A stretch of DNA of 64,000 bases from Escherichia coli (GTDB taxonomy: Bacteria > Pseudomonadota > Gammaproteobacteria > Enterobacterales > Enterobacteriaceae), in the NCBI RefSeq assembly GCF_048403405.1, contig NZ_CP183129.1, one strand, 5' to 3'. The notes below the pieces were generated by a model, which was given only the letters and a program-made list of their open reading frames with translations, was not told the origin of the DNA and did not search any database. Below are positions 81-55,923 of the stretch, piece after piece; the first letter of the stretch is position 1; every line of letters starts with the position of its first letter. A program made the translations under genes and the position numbers.

Positions 81-201
81 CAGAATGGTCATTATACCCC
101 CGCCCCCGACGCTGACCAGTGCTTTTCCCGCGTTTTTATTTGCCAGATGAATCCATATGCGTAAACTCATAACAATGCGCTTTCAAAAGGATTTCTAATC
201 T

Positions 202-2026
<1,825 letters not shown>

Positions 2027-2043
2027 ATAATCGCTTTCGGCGT

Positions 2044-2761
2044 AATAAATATCCTCCGGCATAGCCGGAGGTTTTTCAAATGCGCCTATAAGGCTCTCTT
2101 ACCAGCCGCGCCCTAACAGGCGCACACGATCTGACATTTGCATCCAACTTCGTTACTTACGGCCCGTAAACGGGCTGCCCGGATAGGGAATCGATAACTG
2201 CTCTCCCATTTTATCCTCTTCAAGCTGGTGCTTTATGTAATCCTGTATCTTCGCCGTGTTCTTACCCACCGTATCGACGTAGTACCCTCTGCACCAGAAC
2301 TCCCTGTTCCTGTATTTGAATTTCAAATCACCAAACTGCTCGTAAAGCATCAGACTGCTTTTCCCTTTCAGATATCCCATAAAGCCGGATACGCTCATTT
2401 TGGGCGGGATCTCCACAAGCATATGGATATGATCTGCACAGCATTCAGCTTCCAGAATCCGTACACTTTTCCACTCACACAGCTTTCTCAAAATACTGCC
2501 TATTGCTCTACGCTTCTCTCTGTAGAACACCTGTCTTCGGTATTTTGGCGCAAAAACTATGTGATATTTACAGTTCCATCGGGTGTGCGCTAAGCTCTTT
2601 TCGTTCCCCATTGGGACCCCCTTTTGATTTCTTGTTTGACACTTGCAGTTGCCAGACCGCAAGGTGTTTTAACAAATCAAAAGGGGTTTTAATAACTGGC
2701 TTAAAGCTGAAAGCTTTCCGGAACCCCCAGCCTAGCTGGGGGTTTTCTGTGCACAAAAAAG
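2044..2761 (-). mobile_element. IS200-family insertion sequence, copy 1 (about 718 bp, no terminal inverted repeats)
   Basis: Segment is identical to 37105..37822; encodes a Y1 HuH transposase; imperfect palindromes near both ends (cctccggcatagccggagg and cccccagcctagctggggg). Confidence 0.9.
2153..2611 (-). CDS. tnpA: IS200/IS605-family Y1 (HuH) transposase TnpA
   Basis: Translation MGNEKSLAHTRWNCKYHIVFAPKYRRQVF...; HuH motif (HIHML) and C-terminal tyrosine; start taken at the internal Met of the 169 aa ORF-track entry to give about 152 aa. Confidence 0.9.
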   Translation of the reverse strand: MGNEKSLAHTRWNCKYHIVFAPKYRRQVFYREKRRAIGSILRKLCEWKSVRILEAECCADHIHMLVEIPPKMSVSGFMGYLKGKSSLMLYEQFGDLKFKYRNREFWCRGYYVDTVGKNTAKIQDYIKHQLEEDKMGEQLSIPYPGSPFTGRK

Positions 2762-2786
2762 GGCTGACAACTGTCAGCCCTTATTT
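2761..2786 (-). terminator. oppF intrinsic terminator (hairpin gggctgacagttgtcagccc then T-run on minus strand)
   Basis: 9 bp perfect stem seen in sequence directly after the oppF stop; the T-run lies at the IS200 boundary. Confidence 0.6.
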
Positions 2787-2789
2787 TGT

Positions 2790-3794
2790 TTAAAGCGGAT
2801 CGACTTTCAGGCAAGAAACGGCGTGTCTGAAACTCCCCTCCAGCACAGGACGTGTTTTGGCACACTCCGGACCGGCAATCGGACAACGGGTACGGAAAAC
2901 ACAACCGGAAGGCGGGTTGATCGGCGACGGTAATTCCCCTTCCAGTAACTGGATGGTTTTGTTCTTCTCCAGATCCGGATCAGGTATGGGAACTGCCGAC
3001 ATCAATGCCCGGGTGTAAGGATGTAGTGGATTGTGGTAGACCTCATCATAGGTCCCCAGTTCTACCGCATGGCCGAGATACATCACCAGCACACGATCGG
3101 AAATGTGTTTTACCACGGCCAGGTCGTGAGCGATAAAAATTAATGACAATCCCATCTCGCGTTGCAGCTGCTGGAGCAAGTTGACCACCTGCGCCTGAAT
3201 TGACACGTCCAGCGCCGACACCGGCTCATCACAGATAATCAGCTTCGGTTCAAGAATAAGAGCACGAGCAATCCCGATACGCTGGCACTGCCCACCAGAG
3301 AACTCATGCGGATAGCGGTTAATCAGGTTAGGCAATAACCCGACTTTCAGCATCATCGCCTTCACGCGCTCGCGAACTTCCTGGCGTGACATTTTCGGAT
3401 GATAAGTACGCAGTGGTTCAGCGATGATCTCGCCGATGGTCATACGCGGGTTAAGCGATGCCAACGGATCCTGGAAAATCATCTGAATATCACTGCGAAC
3501 GGCACGCCATTCATCGGGCTTCATGCCCAGCAACTCTTTACCTAACCAGGCAACATGACCGTCGGTCGCCTTGACCAAACCGATGATGGCGCGAGCAAAG
3601 GTGGACTTACCGCATCCCGATTCCCCTACCACACCTAATGTTTCCCCTTCATACAGACGAAGAGTGACACCATCGACGGCTTTGAGCGTTTTCGGCGGTT
3701 GCCAGAACCACTGTTTGCCATCTTTGATTTCAAAGTGCACTTTCAGATCGGCGATTTCAAGGAGGACTTTTCTTCCTTCAGTTACAGCATTCAT
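2790..3794 (-). CDS. oppF: oligopeptide ABC transporter ATP-binding protein
   Basis: 334 aa; Walker A GESGCGKST, ABC signature LSGGQ; synteny with oppDCBA. Confidence 0.95.
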   Translation of the reverse strand: MNAVTEGRKVLLEIADLKVHFEIKDGKQWFWQPPKTLKAVDGVTLRLYEGETLGVVGESGCGKSTFARAIIGLVKATDGHVAWLGKELLGMKPDEWRAVRSDIQMIFQDPLASLNPRMTIGEIIAEPLRTYHPKMSRQEVRERVKAMMLKVGLLPNLINRYPHEFSGGQCQRIGIARALILEPKLIICDEPVSALDVSIQAQVVNLLQQLQREMGLSLIFIAHDLAVVKHISDRVLVMYLGHAVELGTYDEVYHNPLHPYTRALMSAVPIPDPDLEKNKTIQLLEGELPSPINPPSGCVFRTRCPIAGPECAKTRPVLEGSFRHAVSCLKVDPL

Positions 3795-4804
3795 AACAGT
3801 TCCTCCACCGGTTTAAAGCAAGCACGCAGACGGCCAGGCGTAAACTCTTCCAGCGGCGGTGCGCTACTACAAATTTCCATCGCATGTGGACAACGTGGCT
3901 GGAACGGGCAACCTTTCGGTAATCGCAGCAAGTTTGGCGGATTACCCGGGATGGTCAACATTGTTTCACCTTCCGCATCAAGACGCGGCACCGCGTTGAG
4001 CAAACCGATAGAATAAGGATGAACGGGTTGATAAAAGACATCGCGCGCATTGCCATATTCCATCGTGCGCCCGGCGTACATTACCAGCACTTTGTCGCAG
4101 ATCCCTGCCACCACGCCAAGATCGTGGGTGATCATAATGATGGCGGTATTAAATTCCCGCTTCAGTTCATTTAATAGCGTCATGATCTGTGCCTGTACGG
4201 TGACGTCCAGCGCAGTAGTGGGTTCATCCGCAATCAGCAGCTTAGGTCGACATAGCAATGCCATCGCAATCATGACTCGCTGACGCATGCCGCCAGAAAA
4301 TTCGTGCGGGTACATTTTCATGCGTTTACGCGCTTCCGGCATTTTTACCGCATCGAGCATCCGCACCGACTCTTCAAACGCCTCAGCTTTGCTCATGTTC
4401 TTATGCAGCATCAGCACTTCCATCAACTGCTCACCGACACGCATATAGGGATTCAACGAAGTCATTGGGTCCTGAAAAATCATTGAGATTTGTTCAGCGC
4501 GCAGTTTATTGAGTTCACGCTCTGGCAAATTGAGGATTTCACGCCCATTGAAGGTTGCCGATCCGCCAATACGTCCGTTGGCAGCCAACAGGCCCATCAA
4601 CGCAAATGCAGTTTGCGATTTACCCGAACCAGACTCACCTACAATGCCCAGCGTTTCTCCGGCACGTAGGGAAAAATTCAAATCATTGACCGCCGTGACG
4701 TCGCCGTCCGGGGTACTAAAGGTGACACGCAAATCTTTCACGTTCAGCAGTGCGTCAGCCTGTTGTTGTGCGAGCGGCACAGTTGCAGTTTCAATTACGC
4801 TCAT
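3791..4804 (-). CDS. oppD: oligopeptide ABC transporter ATP-binding protein
   Basis: 337 aa; Walker A GESGSGKSQ, FSGGMRQR signature; 4 nt overlap with oppF. Confidence 0.95.
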   Translation of the reverse strand: MSVIETATVPLAQQQADALLNVKDLRVTFSTPDGDVTAVNDLNFSLRAGETLGIVGESGSGKSQTAFALMGLLAANGRIGGSATFNGREILNLPERELNKLRAEQISMIFQDPMTSLNPYMRVGEQLMEVLMLHKNMSKAEAFEESVRMLDAVKMPEARKRMKMYPHEFSGGMRQRVMIAMALLCRPKLLIADEPTTALDVTVQAQIMTLLNELKREFNTAIIMITHDLGVVAGICDKVLVMYAGRTMEYGNARDVFYQPVHPYSIGLLNAVPRLDAEGETMLTIPGNPPNLLRLPKGCPFQPRCPHAMEICSSAPPLEEFTPGRLRACFKPVEELL

Positions 4805-4815
4805 GGCTGCACTCC

Positions 4816-5724
4816 TTAACGATCTTTCGGGTCGAGGGCATCACGCAAGCCATCGCCGATAAAGTTGAAACAAAACAGCGTCACCACGAGGAATCCCGCT
4901 GGGAACAACAGTAACCATGGAGAGACTTCCATCGAGTTCGCGCCATCACTCAGCAATGCACCCCAGCTGCTTAACGGCTCTTGCGTACCCAACCCCAGGA
5001 AGCTAAGGAAAGATTCAAAGAGGATCATGCTGGGCACCAGAAGTGATGCGTAGACCACCACCACACCGAGTACATTCGGCACAATGTGGCGAATAACAAT
5101 GCCCGACGTCGATACACCGCCAACTTGTGCCGCCTCAATAAACTCCTTGCGCTTCAGACTCAGGGTTTGCCCACGCACAATACGAGCCATATCCAGCCAG
5201 GAAACCATGCCTATCGCCACGAAAATCAGCAGGATGTTTTGACCGAAAAAGGTCACCAGCAAAATGACGAAGAACATGAATGGGAAGGAGTTGAGGATTT
5301 CCAGCAGACGCATCATTACCGAATCCACTTTACCGCCCAGATAACCGGAAAGCGAACCATAAAGTGTCCCGACGACCACAGCCACCAGTGCCGCAGCAAC
5401 ACCGACCATGAGTGAGATACGCCCGCCAATCGCAACGCGTACAAGCAGGTCGCGACCGGATGAGTCAGTACCAAAGTAGTGACCGGACTCCATATCCGGG
5501 GCGCTGGACATCATCGCCCAGTCAGTATCGTCATAGGCAAACTGCGAAAGCATCGGTGCCAGGATTACAAATAACGCGATCAGCACCAGCACTATCAGAC
5601 TGGCAACCGCCGCACGGTTATGCATAAAACGTCGACGTGCGTCCTGCCACAAGCTGCGCCCTTCGACCTCCAGCTTTTCACTGAAATTTTCCAGCGTCTC
5701 GCTGTTTTTCTTACTTAACATCAT
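4816..5724 (-). CDS. oppC: oligopeptide ABC transporter permease
   Basis: 302 aa multi-TM protein of the BPD permease type, synteny. Confidence 0.93.
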   Translation of the reverse strand: MMLSKKNSETLENFSEKLEVEGRSLWQDARRRFMHNRAAVASLIVLVLIALFVILAPMLSQFAYDDTDWAMMSSAPDMESGHYFGTDSSGRDLLVRVAIGGRISLMVGVAAALVAVVVGTLYGSLSGYLGGKVDSVMMRLLEILNSFPFMFFVILLVTFFGQNILLIFVAIGMVSWLDMARIVRGQTLSLKRKEFIEAAQVGGVSTSGIVIRHIVPNVLGVVVVYASLLVPSMILFESFLSFLGLGTQEPLSSWGALLSDGANSMEVSPWLLLFPAGFLVVTLFCFNFIGDGLRDALDPKDR

Positions 5725-5738
5725 CGCGAGCTCCAGTA

Positions 5739-6659
5739 TCAGTAACGGATTTTCGGGTCGATAACCGCATATAGCACATCGACAATGGCATTAAACAAAA
5801 TGGTTAACGCACCAACCAGAATGGTCAGACTTAACACTAAGGAATAGTCACGGTTCAATGCGCCATTAACGAACAATTGCCCAATCCCCGGTAAACCATA
5901 AATGGTTTCGATGACCATAGAACCGGTAATAATGCCGACAAATGCAGGGCCCATATAGGAGAGCACGGGTAACAGAGCTGGTTTTAATGCGTGGCGTAAA
6001 ATGATCCGCCGCATAGGTAACCCTTTCGCCCGGGCAGTACGAATAAAGTTGGAGTGTAAAACCTCAATCATAGAGCCACGGGTAATACGCGCAATACTGG
6101 CGATATAGGCGAGTGACAACGCCACCATCGGCAATATCATGAATTTAAGCGCCCCACCATTCCAGCCACCGCCCGGCAGCCAATGCAAAATGATCGCAAA
6201 TATCATGACTAATAATGGCGCAACCACAAAACTGGGGATAACAACCCCGGTCATTGCCAGCCCCATCACGGTATAGTCCCATTTGGTGTTTTGTTTTAAT
6301 GCGGCAATAACGCCAGCACTAACACCCAGTATTACCGCAAGGAAAAATGCTGCGGCTCCCAGTTTGGCAGAAACGGGAAAACTGGATGCAACCAGGTCGT
6401 TGACCGAATAATCTTTATATTTAAACGATGGACCGAAATCGCCATGCGCCAGTTGTTTCAGGTAGCTGAAATACTGTGTCATGATCGGATCATTTAGATG
6501 ATATTTCGCTTCGATATTGGCCATCACTTCTGGCGGTAAAGTACGTTCGCCGGTAAAAGGGCTTCCCGGCGCGAGGCGCATCATGAAGAACGAAATAGTA
6601 ATAAGAATAAATAGCGTCGGAATCGCTTCCAGACAGCGACGTAGAATAAATTTTAACAT
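5739..6659 (-). CDS. oppB: oligopeptide ABC transporter permease
   Basis: 306 aa multi-TM protein, synteny. Confidence 0.93.
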   Translation of the reverse strand: MLKFILRRCLEAIPTLFILITISFFMMRLAPGSPFTGERTLPPEVMANIEAKYHLNDPIMTQYFSYLKQLAHGDFGPSFKYKDYSVNDLVASSFPVSAKLGAAAFFLAVILGVSAGVIAALKQNTKWDYTVMGLAMTGVVIPSFVVAPLLVMIFAIILHWLPGGGWNGGALKFMILPMVALSLAYIASIARITRGSMIEVLHSNFIRTARAKGLPMRRIILRHALKPALLPVLSYMGPAFVGIITGSMVIETIYGLPGIGQLFVNGALNRDYSLVLSLTILVGALTILFNAIVDVLYAVIDPKIRY

Positions 6660-6744
6660 TGCCCTACCTTCTGGCCTGTGCCTTCTGTAATGCGATAAAA
6701 ATCAGACACCGTGGAGCAGGACACGCCTGCCCCACGTATTGCCA

Positions 6745-8376
6745 TTAGTGCTTCACAATGTACATATTCCGGGTGTAGGTATTATCCAGCGGATCTTTGC
6801 CGGTATAGCCACCAACCCACGGTTTCACCAGACGCGCATTCACGTAGTAATAAACAGGAACAATGGCCGAATCCTTATCCAGCTGTTGTTCTGCTTTAGT
6901 GTACAGAGCTGTGCGCTGCGCCTCGTCAGTCGCTTTCAGCGTTTCCGCCATAATGCTGTCAAAGGCCGGGCTCTTATAATGCGCGGTATTCATCGAGCTG
7001 TTCGACAGCATGGTGTTCAGGAAGGAAGTTGGTTCGTTGTAGTCTGCACACCAGCCTGCACGGGCCACATCAAAAGTGCCCTGGTGACGGGTGTCGAGGA
7101 ATGTTTTCCACTCCTGGTTAACCAGTTTGACGTTTACACCAATGTTTTTCTTCCACAATGAAGAGGCAGCAATCGCCAGCTTTTTATGCAGATCGGAGGT
7201 GTTATACAACAGGTTGATGGTTAACGGTTTGTCTGCGGTATAACCCGCTTCAGCCAGCAGTTTTTTCGCTTCTTCGTTACGTTTTTCCTGGCTCCAGCCA
7301 AACCATTCCGGCTGAGTCAATTTTGCGCCATCAGTATACGGTGGAGTGTAACTATAGGCGGGCATGTCGCCCTGCGCTTTCACTTTATTAACAATGATAT
7401 CGCGGTCCATACCCAGTTTCAGTGCGGTACGCACACGTACATCGTTAAATGGCGGTTTCTGGTTGTTAATTTCGTAATAATAAGTGCACAGGTATGGATC
7501 AACGTGAACTTCGTCCGGGATCTCTTTTTTCAGCTTCTGGAACAATTCGATCGGCATGTTGTTATAAGTCATGTCGATTTCACCACTACGGTAGCGATTG
7601 ACATCGGTAACTTCAGAAGCAATAGGCAAATAGGTTACCTGGTTAATAACGGTTTTCGCGTTGTTCCAGTAGGTCGGGCTGCGTTCAAGAACGATTCGTT
7701 CGTTTACGACCCAATCTTTTAAGGTATAGGCACCGTTGGTGACGATATTACCAGGCTGGGTCCATTTTTCGCCGAATTTCTCGATAGCGGCTTTTGGCAC
7801 CGGTGAAGTTGACGGGTGAACAAGTAATTTATAGAAGTACGGAACGGGTTCACTTAAGGTGACTTCTAATGTGTGATCATCAATAGCTTTCACGCCGAGA
7901 TCGGTAATCGGTTTTTTCCCTTCAAGAATTTCATCAATACCGGCGATATGCCCATATTGCAGATAACTGGCATACGGAGAAGCGGTGTTCGGATCAACAG
8001 AACGTTGCCAGCTATACACAAAGTCTTGGGCTGTGACTGGCGTGCCATCAGACCATTTCGCATCTTTACGCAAATGGAAGGTCCAGACTTTCGCGTCTTT
8101 ATTATCCCAGGATTCAGCGACGCCAGGTGCCGGATGGCCGTCAAGATCGCTGACCAGTAAGCCTTCAAACAGGTCTCGGCTGATATTAGACTCCGGAACA
8201 CCTTCAATTTTGTGCGGATCTAATGACTGAACTTCTGAACCATTGTTACGTACCAGCGTTTGTTTTTCCGCCAGTGTGACGCCTGCGGGTACATCAGCTG
8301 CCAGCGCGACATTCCCTGCCATAAGCGCAGCCAGAACGCCAGCTGCTACTAAACTTCTCTTGGTGATGTTGGTCAT
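6745..8376 (-). CDS. oppA: periplasmic oligopeptide-binding protein
   Basis: Start taken at MTNITKRSLVAAGVLAALMAGNVALA (signal peptide) inside the 567 aa ORF-track entry, giving 543 aa; family 5 solute-binding protein. Confidence 0.93.
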   Translation of the reverse strand: MTNITKRSLVAAGVLAALMAGNVALAADVPAGVTLAEKQTLVRNNGSEVQSLDPHKIEGVPESNISRDLFEGLLVSDLDGHPAPGVAESWDNKDAKVWTFHLRKDAKWSDGTPVTAQDFVYSWQRSVDPNTASPYASYLQYGHIAGIDEILEGKKPITDLGVKAIDDHTLEVTLSEPVPYFYKLLVHPSTSPVPKAAIEKFGEKWTQPGNIVTNGAYTLKDWVVNERIVLERSPTYWNNAKTVINQVTYLPIASEVTDVNRYRSGEIDMTYNNMPIELFQKLKKEIPDEVHVDPYLCTYYYEINNQKPPFNDVRVRTALKLGMDRDIIVNKVKAQGDMPAYSYTPPYTDGAKLTQPEWFGWSQEKRNEEAKKLLAEAGYTADKPLTINLLYNTSDLHKKLAIAASSLWKKNIGVNVKLVNQEWKTFLDTRHQGTFDVARAGWCADYNEPTSFLNTMLSNSSMNTAHYKSPAFDSIMAETLKATDEAQRTALYTKAEQQLDKDSAIVPVYYYVNARLVKPWVGGYTGKDPLDNTYTRNMYIVKH

Positions 8377-49073: not shown

Positions 49074-50165
49074 ATGGGATTCAAATGCGGTATCGTCGGT
49101 TTGCCCAACGTCGGGAAATCTACCCTGTTCAACGCGCTGACCAAAGCCGGTATTGAAGCGGCCAACTTTCCATTCTGCACCATCGAGCCGAACACAGGCG
49201 TCGTACCAATGCCTGACCCTCGCCTGGATCAACTGGCTGAAATCGTAAAACCGCAGCGTACGCTTCCCACGACCATGGAATTTGTCGATATCGCCGGTCT
49301 GGTAAAAGGCGCATCGAAAGGCGAAGGTCTGGGTAACCAGTTCCTGACCAACATCCGTGAAACCGAAGCGATCGGTCACGTTGTTCGCTGCTTTGAAAAT
49401 GACAACATCATTCACGTTTCCGGCAAAGTTAACCCGGCTGATGATATTGAAGTTATCAACACCGAACTGGCGCTGGCGGACCTCGACACCTGCGAACGTG
49501 CGATTCATCGCGTACAGAAGAAAGCCAAAGGTGGCGATAAAGACGCGAAAGCTGAGCTGGCGGTCCTGGAAAAATGCCTGCCCCAGCTGGAAAACGCAGG
49601 TATGCTGCGCGCGCTGGATTTAAGCGCTGAAGAGAAAGCGGCTATTCGTTACCTGAGCTTCCTGACGCTGAAACCAACAATGTACATCGCCAACGTCAAC
49701 GAAGACGGTTTTGAAAACAACCCGTATCTTGACCAGGTGCGTGAAATCGCGGCGAAAGAAGGTTCTGTTGTGGTTCCGGTTTGTGCTGCTGTTGAAGCAG
49801 ACATTGCCGAACTGGACGACGAAGAACGTGACGAGTTTATGCAGGAGCTTGGGCTGGAAGAGCCGGGCCTGAACCGTGTGATCCGTGCCGGTTATAAGCT
49901 GCTGAACCTGCAAACTTACTTCACCGCTGGGGTGAAAGAAGTACGTGCATGGACCATTCCGGTTGGTGCAACCGCGCCGCAGGCCGCTGGCAAAATCCAT
50001 ACTGATTTTGAAAAAGGCTTTATCCGTGCACAAACTATTTCGTTCGAAGATTTCATCACTTACAAAGGTGAACAAGGCGCGAAAGAAGCAGGCAAAATGC
50101 GTGCAGAAGGCAAAGATTACATCGTTAAAGATGGCGATGTAATGAACTTCCTGTTCAATGTCTAA
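49074..50165 (+). CDS. ychF: ribosome-binding ATPase YchF (Obg family)
   Basis: 363 aa, G1 motif [10 protein letters not shown]-terminal TGS domain. Confidence 0.96.
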
Positions 50166-50220
50166 TTAATTTGTTGTCTCATGAGGTTTCGCTAAATCTC
50201 ATGAAGAGCGCAAAAGTATA

Positions 50221-50254
50221 TAAAATCCACGCAATTGCGTGGATTTTTCATTTT
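50221..50254 (+). terminator. ychF intrinsic terminator
   Basis: aaaatccacgcaattgcgtggatttttcatttt, perfect 9 bp stem plus T-run. Confidence 0.75.
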
Positions 50255-51009
50255 ACCGAGTCCTAACCATTCTTATAACATCCTACACTTTTGTGCTTAT
50301 TGCCTATAGTGAACCACCAGAATAATTAAAGACATAAGTGTTCAGATGAGGGATATCTCATTAGCAATGAGATAACGTAAGTTTGTGTTCCACTGCACAT
50401 CAGACACCTTTTACAGCTGATCAATATTGATCACGCTCCAATATGCTGGCGAGAAAAGGACTTGCCTGAAGGGCAATATCCAGCAGATAAAGCCCCCGAA
50501 TAACGTGATTACGTGCGATCCTGGCAAGATGAAAATGATAACCAGTAGCACGATAATAACGATAAGCCAGAAAATCCATTGATCAAAAATGAATATCGAT
50601 GTTTTTTGCTTTTTCTTATTAGTAATGCAAAAATGGCTCATATTGTTTTTGTTATGCAGATACATCAAGCGAAAATCCCATAACTAATTAGGATTATTAC
50701 CAAAAATATTCACCAAATTATTTAACCGCTGTTTGTTGTAATGTTTTTGTCATATTCATAGTAACGAATTGGAATAAGTAACGACAACTTAGGGAATAAC
50801 TCGATCTAAACTCACCTTTGTAAGGAGGATGTTAAATATATATTAATTCCTGTGTTCCTGATTTTGCCCGGTAATAGAGAATTATTCTCAGAGCAGCTCA
50901 TCATGATTGCACCATACAAATATCATGATGATAAGAGGATATTATTCATTGACTTAAACAAAATGACAAAATCCATAGACCCATAGCCTGGGTACTATAT
51001 AGGAGTGGT

Positions 51010-53895
51010 ATGGGCATCAAACAACACAATGGGAATACCAAAGCCGATCGTCTCGCTGAATTAAAAATCCGTTCGCCCTCCATTCAACTGATAAAATATG
51101 GCGCTATTGGTTTGAATGCAATTATCTTTTCCCCCCTGCTGATAGCTGCTGATTTAGGAAGTCAAAATGGCACCACTATTACTATTAGTGATGGTGACAG
51201 AATTACAGGAGATACCGCCGATCCATCAGGAAACCTCTATGGTGTAATGACCCCAGCAGGAAACACGCCTGGCAATATCAACCTGGGTAATGATGTCACC
51301 GTCAATGTCAACGACGCCTCTGGATATGCAAAGGGAATCGTTATTCAGGGCAAGAACAGCTCCCTGACAGCTAACCGACTTACAGTAGATGTTGTTAGTC
51401 AAACCTCTGCCATCGGCATTAATTTAATTGGTGACTATACCCATGCTGACTTAGGCACAGGCAGCACCATTAAGAGTAACGATGACGGCATCATTATTGG
51501 ACATAGCTCAACACTAACAGCCACTCAATTCACCATTGAAAACTCGAACGGTATAGGCCTAACCATCAATGACTATGGCACCAGTGTCGATCTTGGAAGC
51601 GGAAGTAAAATCAAGACCGATGGAAGTACAGGTGTTTATATCGGTGGTCTCAACGGCAATAACGCCAATGGTGCTGCGCGTTTTACGGCGACAGACCTGA
51701 CAATCGATGTTCAGGGCTACAGCGCCATGGGAATAAACGTACAGAAAAACTCTGTTGTCGATCTCGGAACAAACAGTACCATTAAAACCAATGGCGATAA
51801 TGCGCACGGCCTCTGGAGCTTTGGCCAGGTGAGCGCGAATGCACTCACTGTTGATGTAACTGGATCCGCGGCCAATGGCGTCGAAGTTCGTGGTGGTACA
51901 ACCACTATCGGTGCTGATAGCCATATTTCTTCCGCGCAGGGCGGTGGCCTCGTAACCAGTGGTTCAGACGCGACAATCAATTTTTCTGGCACGGCAGCGC
52001 AACGAAACAGCATCTTTTCCAGCGGTTCTTATGGTGCCTCAGCCCAGACGGCAACGGCTGTTGTCAACATGCAAAATACCGATATTACGGTTGATCGTAA
52101 TGGCAGTCTGGCGCTGGGTTTGTGGGCGCTCAGCGGCGGTAGAATAACCGGAGACAGTTTGGCTATCACCGGCGCGGCAGGAGCCAGGGGGATTTATGCC
52201 ATGACCAACAGCCAGATCGATCTCACGAGCGATCTGGTCATTGATATGAGTACACCCGACCAGATGGCCATTGCAACGCAACATGACGATGGTTATGCCG
52301 CCAGCCGCATCAACGCCTCGGGTCGTATGCTTATCAACGGTAGCGTTCTTTCCAAAGGTGGGCTAATCAATCTGGATATGCACCCTGGGTCGGTTTGGAC
52401 AGGTTCTTCCCTCAGCGATAATGTCAATGGCGGGAAACTGGACGTTGCAATGAATAACAGCGTCTGGAACGTAACAAGTAATTCTAATCTCGACACGCTG
52501 GCGCTGAGCCATTCAACTGTCGATTTTGCCAGCCACACGTCAACTGCCGGCACATTTACCACATTAAACGTAGAGAACCTGAGCGGTAACAGTACCTTTA
52601 TTATGCGTGCTGATGTTGTTGGCGAGGGTAATGGCGTTAATAATAAAGGGGATTTATTGAATATCAGCGGGAGTAGTGCTGGTAATCACGTATTGGCTAT
52701 CCGTAACCAGGGCAGCGAGGCCACAACGGGAAATGAAGTTCTGACAGTGGTAAAAACCACTGACGGCGCGGCCTCGTTCAGCGCGTCTTCTCAGGTTGAG
52801 TTGGGAGGATATCTGTATGATGTGCGTAAAAATGGCACTAACTGGGAGCTCTACGCTTCCGGGACAATTCCGGAGCCGACTCCAAATCCTGAGCCCACAC
52901 CAGCTCCCGCTCAGCCTCCCATAGTCAACCCCGATCCTACGCCTGAACCCGATCCTACGCCTAACCCCGCTCCCACGCCTAAACCCACCACGACTGCAGA
53001 TGCTGGCGGCAATTATCTCAATGTCGGTTACTTATTGAACTATGTTGAAAACCGTACGCTGATGCAACGGATGGGTGACCTGCGAAATCAGAGTAAAGAC
53101 GGTAATATCTGGTTGCGCAGTTATGGGGGAAGCCTGGACTCCTTTGCCAGTGGCAAACTGAGCGGCTTTGACATGGGTTACAGCGGTATCCAGTTTGGTG
53201 GGGATAAACGTCTCTCTGATGAAATGCCGTTGTATGTCGGTCTGTATATTGGCTCAACACATGCATCGCCGGACTATAGCGGAGGCGACGGTACCGCACG
53301 TTCAGACTACATGGGAATGTACGCCAGTTACATGGCACACAACGGTTTTTACAGCGATCTCGTAGTAAAAGCATCGCGCCAGAAAAATAGTTTCCACGTA
53401 CTGGACAGTCAGAACAACGGCGTTAACGCCAACGGCACTGCGAATGGAATGAGTATCTCCCTGGAAGCCGGGCAGAGGCTCAACCTGTCCCCTACTGGTT
53501 ATGGGTTCTATATAGAGCCGCAAACCCAGCTCACATACAGCCACCAGAATGAGATGGCTATGAAGGCGAGTAATGGCCTCAATATACATCTGAATCACTA
53601 CGAATCGCTGCTGGGGCGTGCCAGCATGATACTGGGGTATGACATCACCGCAGGCAACAGCCAGCTGAATGTCTATGTGAAGACTGGCGCTATCCGCGAG
53701 TTTTCAGGGGATACCGAATATCTGTTGAACAACTCCCGGGAGAAGTACAGTTTCAAAGGTAATGGCTGGAATAATGGCGTGGGAGTCAGTGCACAGTATA
53801 ACAAACAGCACACATTCTATCTCGAAGCGGATTACACGCAGGGTAACCTCTTTGATCAGAAGCAAGTCAACGGAGGATATCGCTTCAGCTTTTAA
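51010..53895 (+). CDS. ycgV: AIDA-I-type autotransporter adhesin (ycgV-like)
   Basis: 961 aa; N-terminal signal region, repetitive Gly/Thr/Asn-rich passenger, Pro-Thr-rich linker, C-terminal beta-barrel ending ...NGGYRFSF. Confidence 0.9.
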   Translation: MGIKQHNGNTKADRLAELKIRSPSIQLIKYGAIGLNAIIFSPLLIAADLGSQNGTTITISDGDRITGDTADPSGNLYGVMTPAGNTPGNINLGNDVTVNVNDASGYAKGIVIQGKNSSLTANRLTVDVVSQTSAIGINLIGDYTHADLGTGSTIKSNDDGIIIGHSSTLTATQFTIENSNGIGLTINDYGTSVDLGSGSKIKTDGSTGVYIGGLNGNNANGAARFTATDLTIDVQGYSAMGINVQKNSVVDLGTNSTIKTNGDNAHGLWSFGQVSANALTVDVTGSAANGVEVRGGTTTIGADSHISSAQGGGLVTSGSDATINFSGTAAQRNSIFSSGSYGASAQTATAVVNMQNTDITVDRNGSLALGLWALSGGRITGDSLAITGAAGARGIYAMTNSQIDLTSDLVIDMSTPDQMAIATQHDDGYAASRINASGRMLINGSVLSKGGLINLDMHPGSVWTGSSLSDNVNGGKLDVAMNNSVWNVTSNSNLDTLALSHSTVDFASHTSTAGTFTTLNVENLSGNSTFIMRADVVGEGNGVNNKGDLLNISGSSAGNHVLAIRNQGSEATTGNEVLTVVKTTDGAASFSASSQVELGGYLYDVRKNGTNWELYASGTIPEPTPNPEPTPAPAQPPIVNPDPTPEPDPTPNPAPTPKPTTTADAGGNYLNVGYLLNYVENRTLMQRMGDLRNQSKDGNIWLRSYGGSLDSFASGKLSGFDMGYSGIQFGGDKRLSDEMPLYVGLYIGSTHASPDYSGGDGTARSDYMGMYASYMAHNGFYSDLVVKASRQKNSFHVLDSQNNGVNANGTANGMSISLEAGQRLNLSPTGYGFYIEPQTQLTYSHQNEMAMKASNGLNIHLNHYESLLGRASMILGYDITAGNSQLNVYVKTGAIREFSGDTEYLLNNSREKYSFKGNGWNNGVGVSAQYNKQHTFYLEADYTQGNLFDQKQVNGGYRFSF

Positions 53896-53994
53896 GTGCG
53901 GGATAGACAAGCCCTTAAACGATGCTGAAAAATGTTAGCGTGCGCCGGAATGAAATACAGATCTCTCTGATGTATCAGAAATCGTTTCTGTCTT

Positions 53995-55923
53995 TCATAC
54001 CCGGCGCTTAAACTGCCCTGCATCAATGCCATGTTGCTTCATTTTCCGCCACAGCGTAGTGCGGCCGATTCCAAGTAAAGCCGACATTTCCTGAATGCGA
54101 CCGCCTGTGACCTGGGCTGCGTTAATAATTGCCTCTTTTTCAACTTCCGCAAATGACAGACTGGTGGAAAGGCGGGTGGCGCTGACATCATCTGTCGCCT
54201 GCTCGGTAAACAGATGTTCAGGTAAATCACTGACGCGAATGCGCCCGTTATCACTACTCAGAGCAAGATTCTCGATGACGCTGTAAAGTTCAAAATCGTT
54301 GCCAGGCCATGCACAGGAAACCAGGCGAGCGAGGGCATCGTCATCAATTTTCAGCCGCGTAGAGAAGCGTTTTTCAAGACTGTGTAATTTGTTATTCACC
54401 AGCGCCGGAATGCTGCCACGCCGCATACGCAGAGGCGGGATGGTAATTTCAAATGCATGCAGCGCGTAATACAGCTGGCGACTAAAGCGATTTTGTTCCA
54501 CCAGCATTGCGAGGTCCGCGGTCGTTGTGGCAATCACTTTGACATCAATGGGTATTAAACGCCGCGCATCCAGTCGCGTGATAACACCCTGCTTGATAAC
54601 CTGAAGCAAAGCAGACTGTAACTCCACCGCCAGATATTCAATCTTTTCAAGAAACAGCGTGCCGCCGTGCGCCAGTTCCAGCCGACTCAGACGGCCATTT
54701 TCATTATCCGTGCGATCGCCACCAATAAATTCTTCCGCCAGCGCCGCATCACCATATAACTCACAATTGACGGCAATATAAGGCCCCGCTGCACGCTCGC
54801 TTTCATTATGAATTGCCTGACTTAGCAGTGCCTTGCCCACGCCCTCCTCTCCACAAAGCAGGACAGGAAAGCTACTGCGCGCCGCCTGGCGACCAAAATG
54901 AATCAAGCGGCGGGTTTGCGGATCCTCTTGTGGCATATGAGCGAAAGTATGGCTGACTTTTCCTAATTGACTGGTCATTAACTGCCGCATCTGTTCCACA
55001 GGATGGAGCAACAAAATAAAGCTGGTTCCCTGCGTTTCTATTATCGGTTTAAGGGTTATCACCGCATCAATAAACTGATGCTGACTTTCAAAGGTTGCTT
55101 CTACGTGTTTGAGCGGATGTGCCTGTTTTATTGCTTGTTGCAATACGGCGGGTAACGTTAAGAGTTCAGTGATTGCCCTTCCCTGACTTGCCGTCGCGTC
55201 AAGGCGCAAGACCCGCGCCGCCTGGGCGTTGATAAATTGCAAATTACCCTGCTCGTCCCAGCTAATCACCCCATCATCCATACTTTCTAACAGGGCATTA
55301 AGTTGATTTAAATGACGGTTAGTTTCAGCGAGCAAACTGTCCGTCAGCAGTAAATTACCGACCTCTCGGGCGATTGCCAACGTCAACGGCAAATCAGCTG
55401 CGGTAGTTTGCTCAACCGGACACGCCAGCGCTATTGTTCCCGTCAATCGGCCCTTGCTGTCAAACAACGGCGTTGCACAAAAGGCCCAGTTCCAGAGTGC
55501 CTGTTTGAAATGTTGATCGGCCATCGTTTTCACGGCCTGACCAGAGATAGCCGCTAACGATAGCGCACAAGTACCAATAATTCCCTCGGCGCAATACGTG
55601 CCGTCATTGAATCCCAGTGCACTTAGCTGCTGCAAGGTTTGCGGATCGCCATTACGGCTGAGAATGCAGGCGGTTTCATCGAGGATAAACAGCGCACACT
55701 CTCGCGGTGCCATATATTCCCAGGCATCTTCCAGCGCAGCCTGCCCGAGCGTCAGCATCGCTTTCTTACGCCGATAAATAGACGCAAATGTCACGCCCTG
55801 GGCCTGGTGTGGTACGTTCCATGTCTCCCGTTTCATCAGCTTAATGCATCGCTCCCAGGAGGTTGCAATTAAGGGAGATATGTCCCGACCATCGTTGTTA
55901 AAAGCGCTACTCATATCCCGCAT
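53995..55923 (-). CDS. dhaR: sigma-54-family (AAA+) transcriptional activator of the dha operon
   Basis: 642 aa; GAF/PAS N-terminus, AAA+ core (GEEGVGK), C-terminal HTH. Confidence 0.93.
   Translation of the reverse strand: MRDMSSAFNNDGRDISPLIATSWERCIKLMKRETWNVPHQAQGVTFASIYRRKKAMLTLGQAALEDAWEYMAPRECALFILDETACILSRNGDPQTLQQLSALGFNDGTYCAEGIIGTCALSLAAISGQAVKTMADQHFKQALWNWAFCATPLFDSKGRLTGTIALACPVEQTTAADLPLTLAIAREVGNLLLTDSLLAETNRHLNQLNALLESMDDGVISWDEQGNLQFINAQAARVLRLDATASQGRAITELLTLPAVLQQAIKQAHPLKHVEATFESQHQFIDAVITLKPIIETQGTSFILLLHPVEQMRQLMTSQLGKVSHTFAHMPQEDPQTRRLIHFGRQAARSSFPVLLCGEEGVGKALLSQAIHNESERAAGPYIAVNCELYGDAALAEEFIGGDRTDNENGRLSRLELAHGGTLFLEKIEYLAVELQSALLQVIKQGVITRLDARRLIPIDVKVIATTTADLAMLVEQNRFSRQLYYALHAFEITIPPLRMRRGSIPALVNNKLHSLEKRFSTRLKIDDDALARLVSCAWPGNDFELYSVIENLALSSDNGRIRVSDLPEHLFTEQATDDVSATRLSTSLSFAEVEKEAIINAAQVTGGRIQEMSALLGIGRTTLWRKMKQHGIDAGQFKRRV

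Follow-up and report, generated by a model that had tools for sequence, protein, structure and literature searches.

Background

The autotransporter YcgV of Escherichia coli K-12 promotes adhesion and biofilm formation when its expression is forced (PMC3796261, PMC9289746). A review of these proteins assigns it to phylogenetic group 4 together with Ag43, AIDA-I and TibA, notes the association with biofilm, and states that the mechanism of YcgV is unknown (PMC9289746). The autochaperone domain of YcgV has been found to form a separate cluster of its own (PMC5767081). Here we examine a stretch of 64,000 nucleotides of E. coli DNA (contig NZ_CP183129.1, referred to as the window) and, within it, the open reading frame (ORF) at 51010..53895 on the plus strand as a candidate allele of ycgV, together with the AT-rich DNA that precedes it. 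A model's earlier reading of the letters, referred to here as the original prediction, had proposed a large autotransporter adhesin of AIDA type at this position, and the features that it named are considered below alongside the results that bear on them.

Identity of the gene

51010..53895, plus strand: ycgV coding sequence (ORF, megablast, RefSeq annotation)

We are highly confident that this ORF is the known E. coli gene ycgV, encoding a classical (type Va) autotransporter adhesin, because the sequence matches to reference strains and the order of the surrounding genes agree. A megablast search of 5,426 complete E. coli genomes with 50166..53895 gave 100% DNA identity to strain TUM14771 and approximately 97% to K-12 MG1655, and the matched feature is named ycgV in the listed records. 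In the window, ychH (minus strand), pth and ychF lie upstream and dhaR (minus strand) and dhaK lie downstream. K-12 shares this gene order, with a YcgV of 955 amino acids (aa) and a ychF-ycgV spacer of 768 bp. The flanking genes are identical in order and orientation, and high identity to K-12 ycgV combined with the position between ychF and dhaR identifies the product as the YcgV orthologue. The ORF is intact, opens with ATG and encodes the 961 aa that had been predicted, and its start codon is the one used in the RefSeq annotation of TUM14771. A Shine-Dalgarno sequence, AGGAG, stands ahead of this start at 51001-51005, and no other credible ORF was found in 50166-51009 or 53896-53994. Clustered at 90% identity, YcgV proteins of E. 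coli form a group of 13,508 member sequences.

The gene already has a name and a partial characterisation, the H-NS-bound DNA upstream of it is listed in published compilations, and nothing new was found at this locus. Beyond correct annotation the significance is small, and the yield of the analysis is descriptive: the domain boundaries of this allele, the allele frequencies, among complete genomes, of length variants in the spacer and the upstream region, and the boundaries of the cassette in which the gene resides.

Domain architecture and export

51010..51150, plus strand: putative extended signal peptide, aa 1-47 (family conservation; disorder of aa 1-44 in the AlphaFold2 model)
51151..52857, plus strand: passenger, aa 48-616, of predicted beta-helix type with degenerate repeats of ~50 aa (AlphaFold2, Foldseek)
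52489..52854, plus strand: pertactin-type C-terminal part of the passenger (autochaperone), aa 494-615 (PF03212, PDB match)
52990..53073, plus strand: predicted alpha-helical segment, aa 661-688 (AlphaFold2/DSSP, alignment with EspP and BrkA)
53104..53889, plus strand: predicted outer-membrane beta-barrel translocator, aa 699-960 (PF03797, Foldseek)

Sequence matches to Pfam, NCBIfam and PDB entries agree on this layout, and so does an AlphaFold2 model, which was built from an alignment of 63 sequences and has a mean predicted local distance difference test score (pLDDT) of 85.9. The C-terminal autotransporter beta domain on which the original prediction depended is present according to Pfam, NCBIfam, the PDB sequence search, the AlphaFold2 model and Foldseek. 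PF03797, the type Va barrel family, matches aa 700-941 (E=1.4e-37), TIGR01414 matches aa 513-961 (E=3e-107), and the modelled barrel spans aa 699-960. In a PDB sequence search the barrels of Vag8, BrkA, EspP and Hbp match aa 654-961, with Vag8 (E=1.4e-24) and BrkA (E=1.4e-22) as the best matches. Foldseek comparisons with the PDB gave the barrel target-normalised template modelling (TM) scores of 0.89-0.90 (BrkA), 0.87 (Hbp), 0.84 (EspP) and 0.72 (transport unit of AIDA-I), and the NalP barrel is also among the matches. The protein ends in YRFSF, a motif that is near-invariant across the family and provides the aromatic C-terminus of a type Va barrel.

The passenger is modelled as all-beta, with short strands throughout aa 48-616 and pLDDT mostly above 90. 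PF03212 (Pertactin) matches aa 494-615 (E=1.5e-37), a PDB sequence match to the C-terminal part of pertactin covers aa 478-616, and Foldseek pairs the passenger with the pertactin structure 1dab (E=1.2e-11). Together the Pfam match, the model and the structural match point to a beta-helix with a pertactin-type autochaperone, the passenger form of type Va proteins. The passenger had been described as repetitive and rich in Gly, Thr and Asn; the composition of aa 50-615 (G 13.8%, S 11.5%, T 11.0%, N 9.5%) supports the three residues named and adds serine, which had been omitted. The repetitiveness is of a degenerate kind only, in that four ~50-aa units within aa 105-320 align with one another in pairwise local alignments at z-scores of 4.6-8.6 against shuffled sequences and share the pattern LTAxxLTVDV...IGIN...DLGxGSxIKxN. 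Tandem Repeats Finder detects no DNA-level repeat in the passenger, and a residue-offset periodicity test of the same region is weak (maximum z 2.8) because the units differ in length.

Immediately before the barrel, AlphaFold2/DSSP places helices at aa 661-667, 669-680 and 684-688 with pLDDT of ~89-90, and the region aa 661-688 aligns with the pre-cleavage beta-domain constructs of EspP and BrkA. On the model, this helix is the true autotransporter linker, with a predicted position inside the pore.

At the other end of the protein, the N-terminus comprises a charged extension of ~29 aa, a hydrophobic core (GAIGLNAIIFSPLLIAA) and a predicted cleavage site after IAA. The core (aa 31-47) and the IAA/D site are conserved in the family behind a long N-terminal extension, and the extension and the AA-D/x-GSQ junction are kept in homologues from Citrobacter, Morganella, Leminorella and Pragia; the Pantoea homologues have a shorter N-terminal form. 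The Pfam ESPR model (PF13018) matches two distant homologues only and not the ycgV protein, and aa 1-44 are disordered in the AlphaFold2 model (pLDDT <50). From this conservation we infer that aa 1-47 constitute an extended signal peptide, with predicted cleavage after Ala47.

Considered with general autotransporter biology, the domain anatomy suggests a route by which YcgV may reach the cell surface. The extended signal peptide of 47 aa would direct the protein to Sec for passage across the inner membrane, after which the beta-barrel assembly machinery would build the barrel at the C-terminus (aa 699-960) into the outer membrane, with the helix at aa 661-688 filling its pore. The passenger (aa 48-616) would be threaded outwards and would fold into its beta-helix from the pertactin-type autochaperone end, and the disordered Pro/Thr-rich spacer (aa 621-661) would keep it away from the barrel. 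At the level of expression, H-NS, which binds the K-12 allele, and YbdO, a repressor in avian pathogenic E. coli, would both act on the upstream region.

One further observation concerns the DNA of the barrel-coding region, where the sigma-54 motif TTGGCTCAACACATGCA occurs without mismatch at 53249..53265 (plus strand), on the sense strand of ycgV and pointing to the dhaR end. The same motif has been reported as the intragenic sigma-54 site IS15, detected by chromatin immunoprecipitation (ChIP) sequencing, in K-12 ycgV (PMC4591121).

The Pro/Thr-rich spacer and its length variation

52870..52992, plus strand: Pro/Thr-rich spacer, aa 621-661, predicted disordered (composition, AlphaFold2)
52930..52986, plus strand: 18-bp tandem repeat, 3.2 copies (Tandem Repeats Finder)

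The Pro/Thr-rich sequence PEPTPNPEPTPAPAQPPIVNPDPTPEPDPTPNPAPTPKPTT, which had been placed at about 52868..52995 and named a linker, is found at aa 621-661, corresponding to nucleotides 52870..52992, so that its earlier limits were off by 2-3 nucleotides. The surrounding region (aa 616-665) is 38% Pro and 18% Thr, and aa 620-655 are disordered in the model (pLDDT <50). As modelled, this stretch is better described as a disordered spacer that leads from the autochaperone end to the pore-spanning helical linker.

Within the spacer, Tandem Repeats Finder reports a period of 18 bp in 3.2 copies with 87% matches at 52930..52986, encoding the hexapeptide PDPTPx. K-12 is without one of these units (PDPTPN), which gives a protein of 955 rather than 961 aa. 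The 18-bp deletion is placed at 52948-52965 in the pairwise alignment and at 52952-52969 in an alignment of 10 strains, its position within the repeat being arbitrary, and the K-12-type deletion recurs among these strains. In strain MLI121 another 18 bp is missing, at 52873-52890 (PEPTPN); because this deletion differs from the K-12 type, at least two slippage sites are indicated.

The frequency of these variants was evaluated in matches that cover 52750..53110 in full. A spread sample of 59 of them showed two lengths only, 361 nucleotides in 19 matches and 343 nucleotides in 40. Identity bands track length and, on this basis, the 3942 E. coli records are estimated to divide into approximately 1275 with the long allele and 2667 with the short one. 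Within E. coli the spacer is a common dimorphism and is not hypervariable. Across the family it is hypervariable in both length and sequence: the equivalent spacer in other genera ranges from 17 to 130 aa and is built from unrelated repeat types (PEPEPE, PADEQ, DPADNGAVTPV and SSVTPDPD) between conserved flanks, NWELY..SG and ITTTADA. The expectation that linker repeats of this kind vary in length between strains is therefore supported by the 18-bp dimorphism, the second 18-bp site and the range across genera, with the qualification that the 59 E. coli genomes sampled showed two lengths only.

The AT-rich upstream region

50222..50247, no strand assigned: ychF terminator, left edge of the variable cassette (terminator scan; homology end at 50253)
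50254..51009, plus strand: AT-rich ycgV upstream region (GC content; counterpart of the K-12 promoter island)
50446..50520, no strand assigned: 75-bp dimorphic segment, present in this allele (alignments, sample lengths)
50884..51009, plus strand: equivalent of the 126-bp YbdO probe, including AGGAG (primer mapping, PMC11681634)

The intergenic region between ychF and ycgV (50166..51009) measures 844 bp at 35.2% GC, and the portion at 50255..51009 measures 755 bp at 35.4% GC, with the lowest 300-bp stretches of the upstream region reaching 31%; for comparison, the window is 50.1% GC and the ycgV ORF 49.9%. The 840-bp AT-rich region that had been predicted is therefore present and its K-12 counterpart is bound by H-NS, although its designation as a transcribed leader is unproven. 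In K-12, the spacer between ycgV and ychF is one of 78 'promoter islands' described by Panyukov and Ozoline (PMC3661553), and it carries the code 'A' in their Table 1, denoting binding of H-NS in all of the compiled studies that combined ChIP with microarrays (PMC3661553). Coordinate conversion places this 301-bp island at approximately 50550-50850 of the window, an estimate that assumes an older version of the K-12 coordinates. The AT-rich regulatory DNA (35% against 50% GC) and the patchy distribution of the gene described below are those expected of an H-NS-silenced, horizontally acquired gene, and silencing of ycgV by H-NS is a well-motivated prediction for this allele, with occupancy taken from that of K-12. 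A search of the window for the H-NS motif TCGATAAATT with at most two mismatches gave 73 sites against 66 expected and none in 50260-51009, and was uninformative.

In avian pathogenic E. coli, where YbdO represses ycgV, this repressor shifted a 126-bp ycgV promoter probe in an electrophoretic mobility shift assay (PMC11681634); of the two primers for this probe, one matches 50884-50903 with 2 mismatches and the other 50990-51009 with none. Because H-NS binds the upstream region in K-12 and YbdO represses the gene, ycgV expression is probably low under laboratory conditions.

The upstream region also varies in length. Pairwise and 10-strain alignments show that K-12-type alleles are without the 75 bp at 50446..50520, on both sides of which stands a CTGGC direct repeat. 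In the sampled matches the intergenic length is ~840-845 bp in 27 rows, 768 bp in 24 and 790 bp in one, and an insertion of the insertion sequence IS1 was observed in one sampled case. This 75-bp segment and the 6-aa unit of the spacer are two common, unlinked insertion-deletion dimorphisms, and it is conceivable but unlikely that they are selected as tuning devices instead of being products of neutral slippage. If it were true, the 75-bp segment would set the strength of ycgV silencing, and the 6-aa unit would set the reach of the passenger past the lipopolysaccharide or capsule.

Several minor features of this region may be recorded. The ychF terminator is a hairpin at 50222..50247 with an 11-bp stem followed by a T run, and it appears on both strands in the terminator scan. 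In an Rfam scan of 49900-54100 at permissive E-values, all matches were below threshold: Leu_leader on or beside this hairpin (31 bits, below the gathering score of 50) and mir-454 (E=0.31), both of which were treated as spurious. Genomic SELEX (systematic evolution of ligands by exponential enrichment) has placed a constitutive minor-sigma promoter, listed in the section on heat-shock sigma, at coordinate 1255834 of K-12, between ycgV and ychF (PMC5493296). By approximate conversion this corresponds to ~50275 in the window, ~110 bp downstream of the ychF stop codon.

A variable cassette between ychF and dhaR

At least 80% of the locus is retained in 3930 of the 5,426 complete genomes searched, and in approximately 600 nothing beyond the first 88 bp downstream of ychF remains. 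In a comparison with strain S103EC, which is without ycgV, homology breaks off after 50253 and begins again 7 nucleotides inside the 3' end of dhaR, at 54002; this ycgV-less junction is common to approximately 600 complete genomes. The gap in S103EC holds an island of ~27.6 kb (NZ_CP076693.1, 1345166-1372797) that exactly replaces the ycgV cassette and encodes two tyrosine recombinases, IS3/IS91 remnants, a reverse transcriptase/endonuclease of the retron Ec67 family and an ABC-three-component defence system. Because the locus is missing from some 600 genomes and the homology boundaries with S103EC are sharp, the interval 50254..54001 behaves as a 3.7-kb cassette, composed of ycgV and its AT-rich upstream DNA, in a variable chromosomal site. 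The ychF-dhaR interval can thus hold a defence island in place of the adhesin gene.

The homologues of Citrobacter farmeri (82% identity) and of Morganella morganii (59%) occupy unrelated loci, and they too are preceded by AT-rich DNA (37% GC in Citrobacter and 26% in Morganella). The upstream DNA of the C. farmeri homologue is ~69% identical to 50671-50777 and 50858-51009 of the window. A metagenome contig in ENA (ERZ27238311:k111_11080, 169..8024) encodes the same protein as the C. farmeri homologue. On this contig the ycgV homologue adjoins an IalB-family gene and a second autotransporter that was split by the gene caller into an ESPR product and an AC_1/Pertactin/barrel product, which suggests a local cluster of autotransporter genes. 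Eight or nine matches to 50166..53895 fall on records classed as plasmid.

Alternative readings of the locus

Several points weigh against the view of ycgV as an exported adhesin held silent by H-NS. SignalP 6.0 gives K-12 YcgV a signal peptide probability below 0.5 (PMC13101318), and the 2026 display-toolkit study that reports this value found that the C-terminal unit of YcgV displays cargo on the cell surface once it is given foreign signal peptides (PMC13101318), a result that speaks for the autotransporter reading. Because the signal peptide call is not a confident one and foreign signal peptides were supplied in that work, export of the native protein is something that we infer. Derepression of ycgV in an hns mutant was not found in the searchable literature. 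A sigma-70 consensus scan of 50100-51100 gave 2 promoter-like sites against 4.0 expected from shuffled sequence, and thus lends no independent support to a dense promoter cluster and locates no promoter. Finally, many lineages lack ycgV or carry it as a pseudogene, so that the gene is dispensable.

This last point invites a rival reading, in which ycgV is cryptic and decaying: selection on it would be relaxed, its intact state here would be accidental, and the gene would in effect never be expressed and would be on course for loss. Several inactivations, independent of one another, were observed. The O157:H7 strain BB24-1 carries a 10-bp frameshift deletion at 51145-51154, at the predicted signal peptide cleavage site; KD602 has an internal stop; the CX21 gene is interrupted by an IS3 insertion; in NCCP 15739 ycgV is truncated and dhaR is lost; and to these may be added the ~600 genomes reduced to 88 bp after ychF. 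Polymorphisms in ycgV among 9 strains comprise 78 synonymous and 59 non-synonymous changes, which can be read as fitting weak constraint. HS-02 was left out of these counts, its many ycgV indels of 1-4 bp being judged likely to be sequencing or assembly noise. Set against this are the 3930 genomes that keep the locus, with most sampled copies annotated as intact, and the full-length homologues of 46-83% identity across Enterobacterales in which the domain boundaries are conserved. In published scans ycgV is under positive selection (PMC9110714) rather than in pure decay, and repression of the gene by YbdO has been reported together with a virulence phenotype (PMC11681634). On balance we consider decay of a cryptic gene unlikely.

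A second reading accepts the autotransporter and changes its role, so that the passenger would not be primarily an adhesin and may act as BrkA does in serum resistance or as Vag8 does in binding the complement C1 inhibitor. Vag8 and BrkA are the best PDB sequence matches (E=1.4e-24 and E=1.4e-22), and BrkA is the top Foldseek match for the barrel (TM 0.89-0.90). These matches, however, cover the barrel and helix (aa 654-961) and not the functional passenger, which matches the generic beta-helix and autochaperone region of pertactin only, and the published phenotypes of K-12 YcgV are adhesion and biofilm formation. A role of this kind is accordingly very unlikely, and adhesion is the preferred reading.

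The weakest proposal, that the upstream region encodes a small minus-strand membrane protein, either an 85-aa ORF (50411..50668) or a 52-aa ORF (50421..50579), is exceedingly improbable: the 85-aa ORF is hydrophobic with transmembrane-like stretches, its sole indel among 10 strains is the in-frame 75 bp, and the Prokaryotic Genome Annotation Pipeline calls the 52-aa ORF a hypothetical protein in strain E200086 only, but Phe/Ile/Leu/Lys-rich ORFs arise by chance in AT-rich DNA, no gene is annotated there in K-12, TUM14771 or 60 sampled upstream matches, and both ORFs were rejected as genes on their substitution pattern (synonymous to non-synonymous changes of 6:16 for the 85-aa ORF, with shifted frames alike at 8:14 and 5:18, and of 3:14 for the 52-aa ORF) and on premature stops, one of which cuts the longer ORF short in half of the 10 strains, while the K-12-type deletion removes one third of it in two more.

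Comparison with known autotransporters

The closest described system is YcgV of K-12 itself (b1202), which shares with this allele the ychF-dhaR locus, the start codon, the domain order, the N-terminal sequence and ~97% DNA identity. The present allele differs in carrying one additional hexapeptide (PDPTPN), an additional 75 bp upstream and 91 point differences over 3.7 kb.

Among proteins of solved structure the closest relatives are pertactin (P.69), BrkA and Vag8 of Bordetella. The C-terminal passenger region of pertactin aligns with aa 478-616 of YcgV and its beta-helix (1dab) resembles that of the modelled passenger, whereas BrkA and Vag8 resemble YcgV in their barrels (aa 654-961). Pertactin, too, carries Pro-rich repeats, which lie towards the end of its passenger. 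The three proteins are nevertheless distant, with 15-26% identity in structural alignments, and their organisms and reported functions differ from those of YcgV. The N-terminal two-thirds of the YcgV passenger has no specific sequence match.

AIDA-I, Ag43 and TibA share with YcgV the type Va architecture and the beta-helix passenger. The structure of the AIDA-I transport unit, 4mee, matches less well (TM 0.72, 13% identity) and is absent from the PDB sequence matches to YcgV at E<=0.001. AIDA-I and TibA differ further in that no heptosyltransferase gene of the aah/tibC type stands beside ycgV, whose neighbours are ychF and dhaR. The NCBIfam model for the AIDA-I family autotransporter adhesin YfaL/EhaC reaches 16.2 bits against a cut-off of 1459 (E=0.0016), which places YcgV outside that family. 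MisL of Salmonella gives a similarly weak NCBIfam match at aa 291-655 (E=2.6e-16; score 58.7 against an equivalog cut-off of 1297), and MisL and YfaL/EhaC are paralogous families of YcgV and not orthologues. The term 'AIDA-type', with which the original prediction labelled the protein, agrees with its published placement in group 4 (PMC9289746) and fits only in this broad literature sense, since the closest solved relatives of YcgV are BrkA, Vag8 and pertactin.

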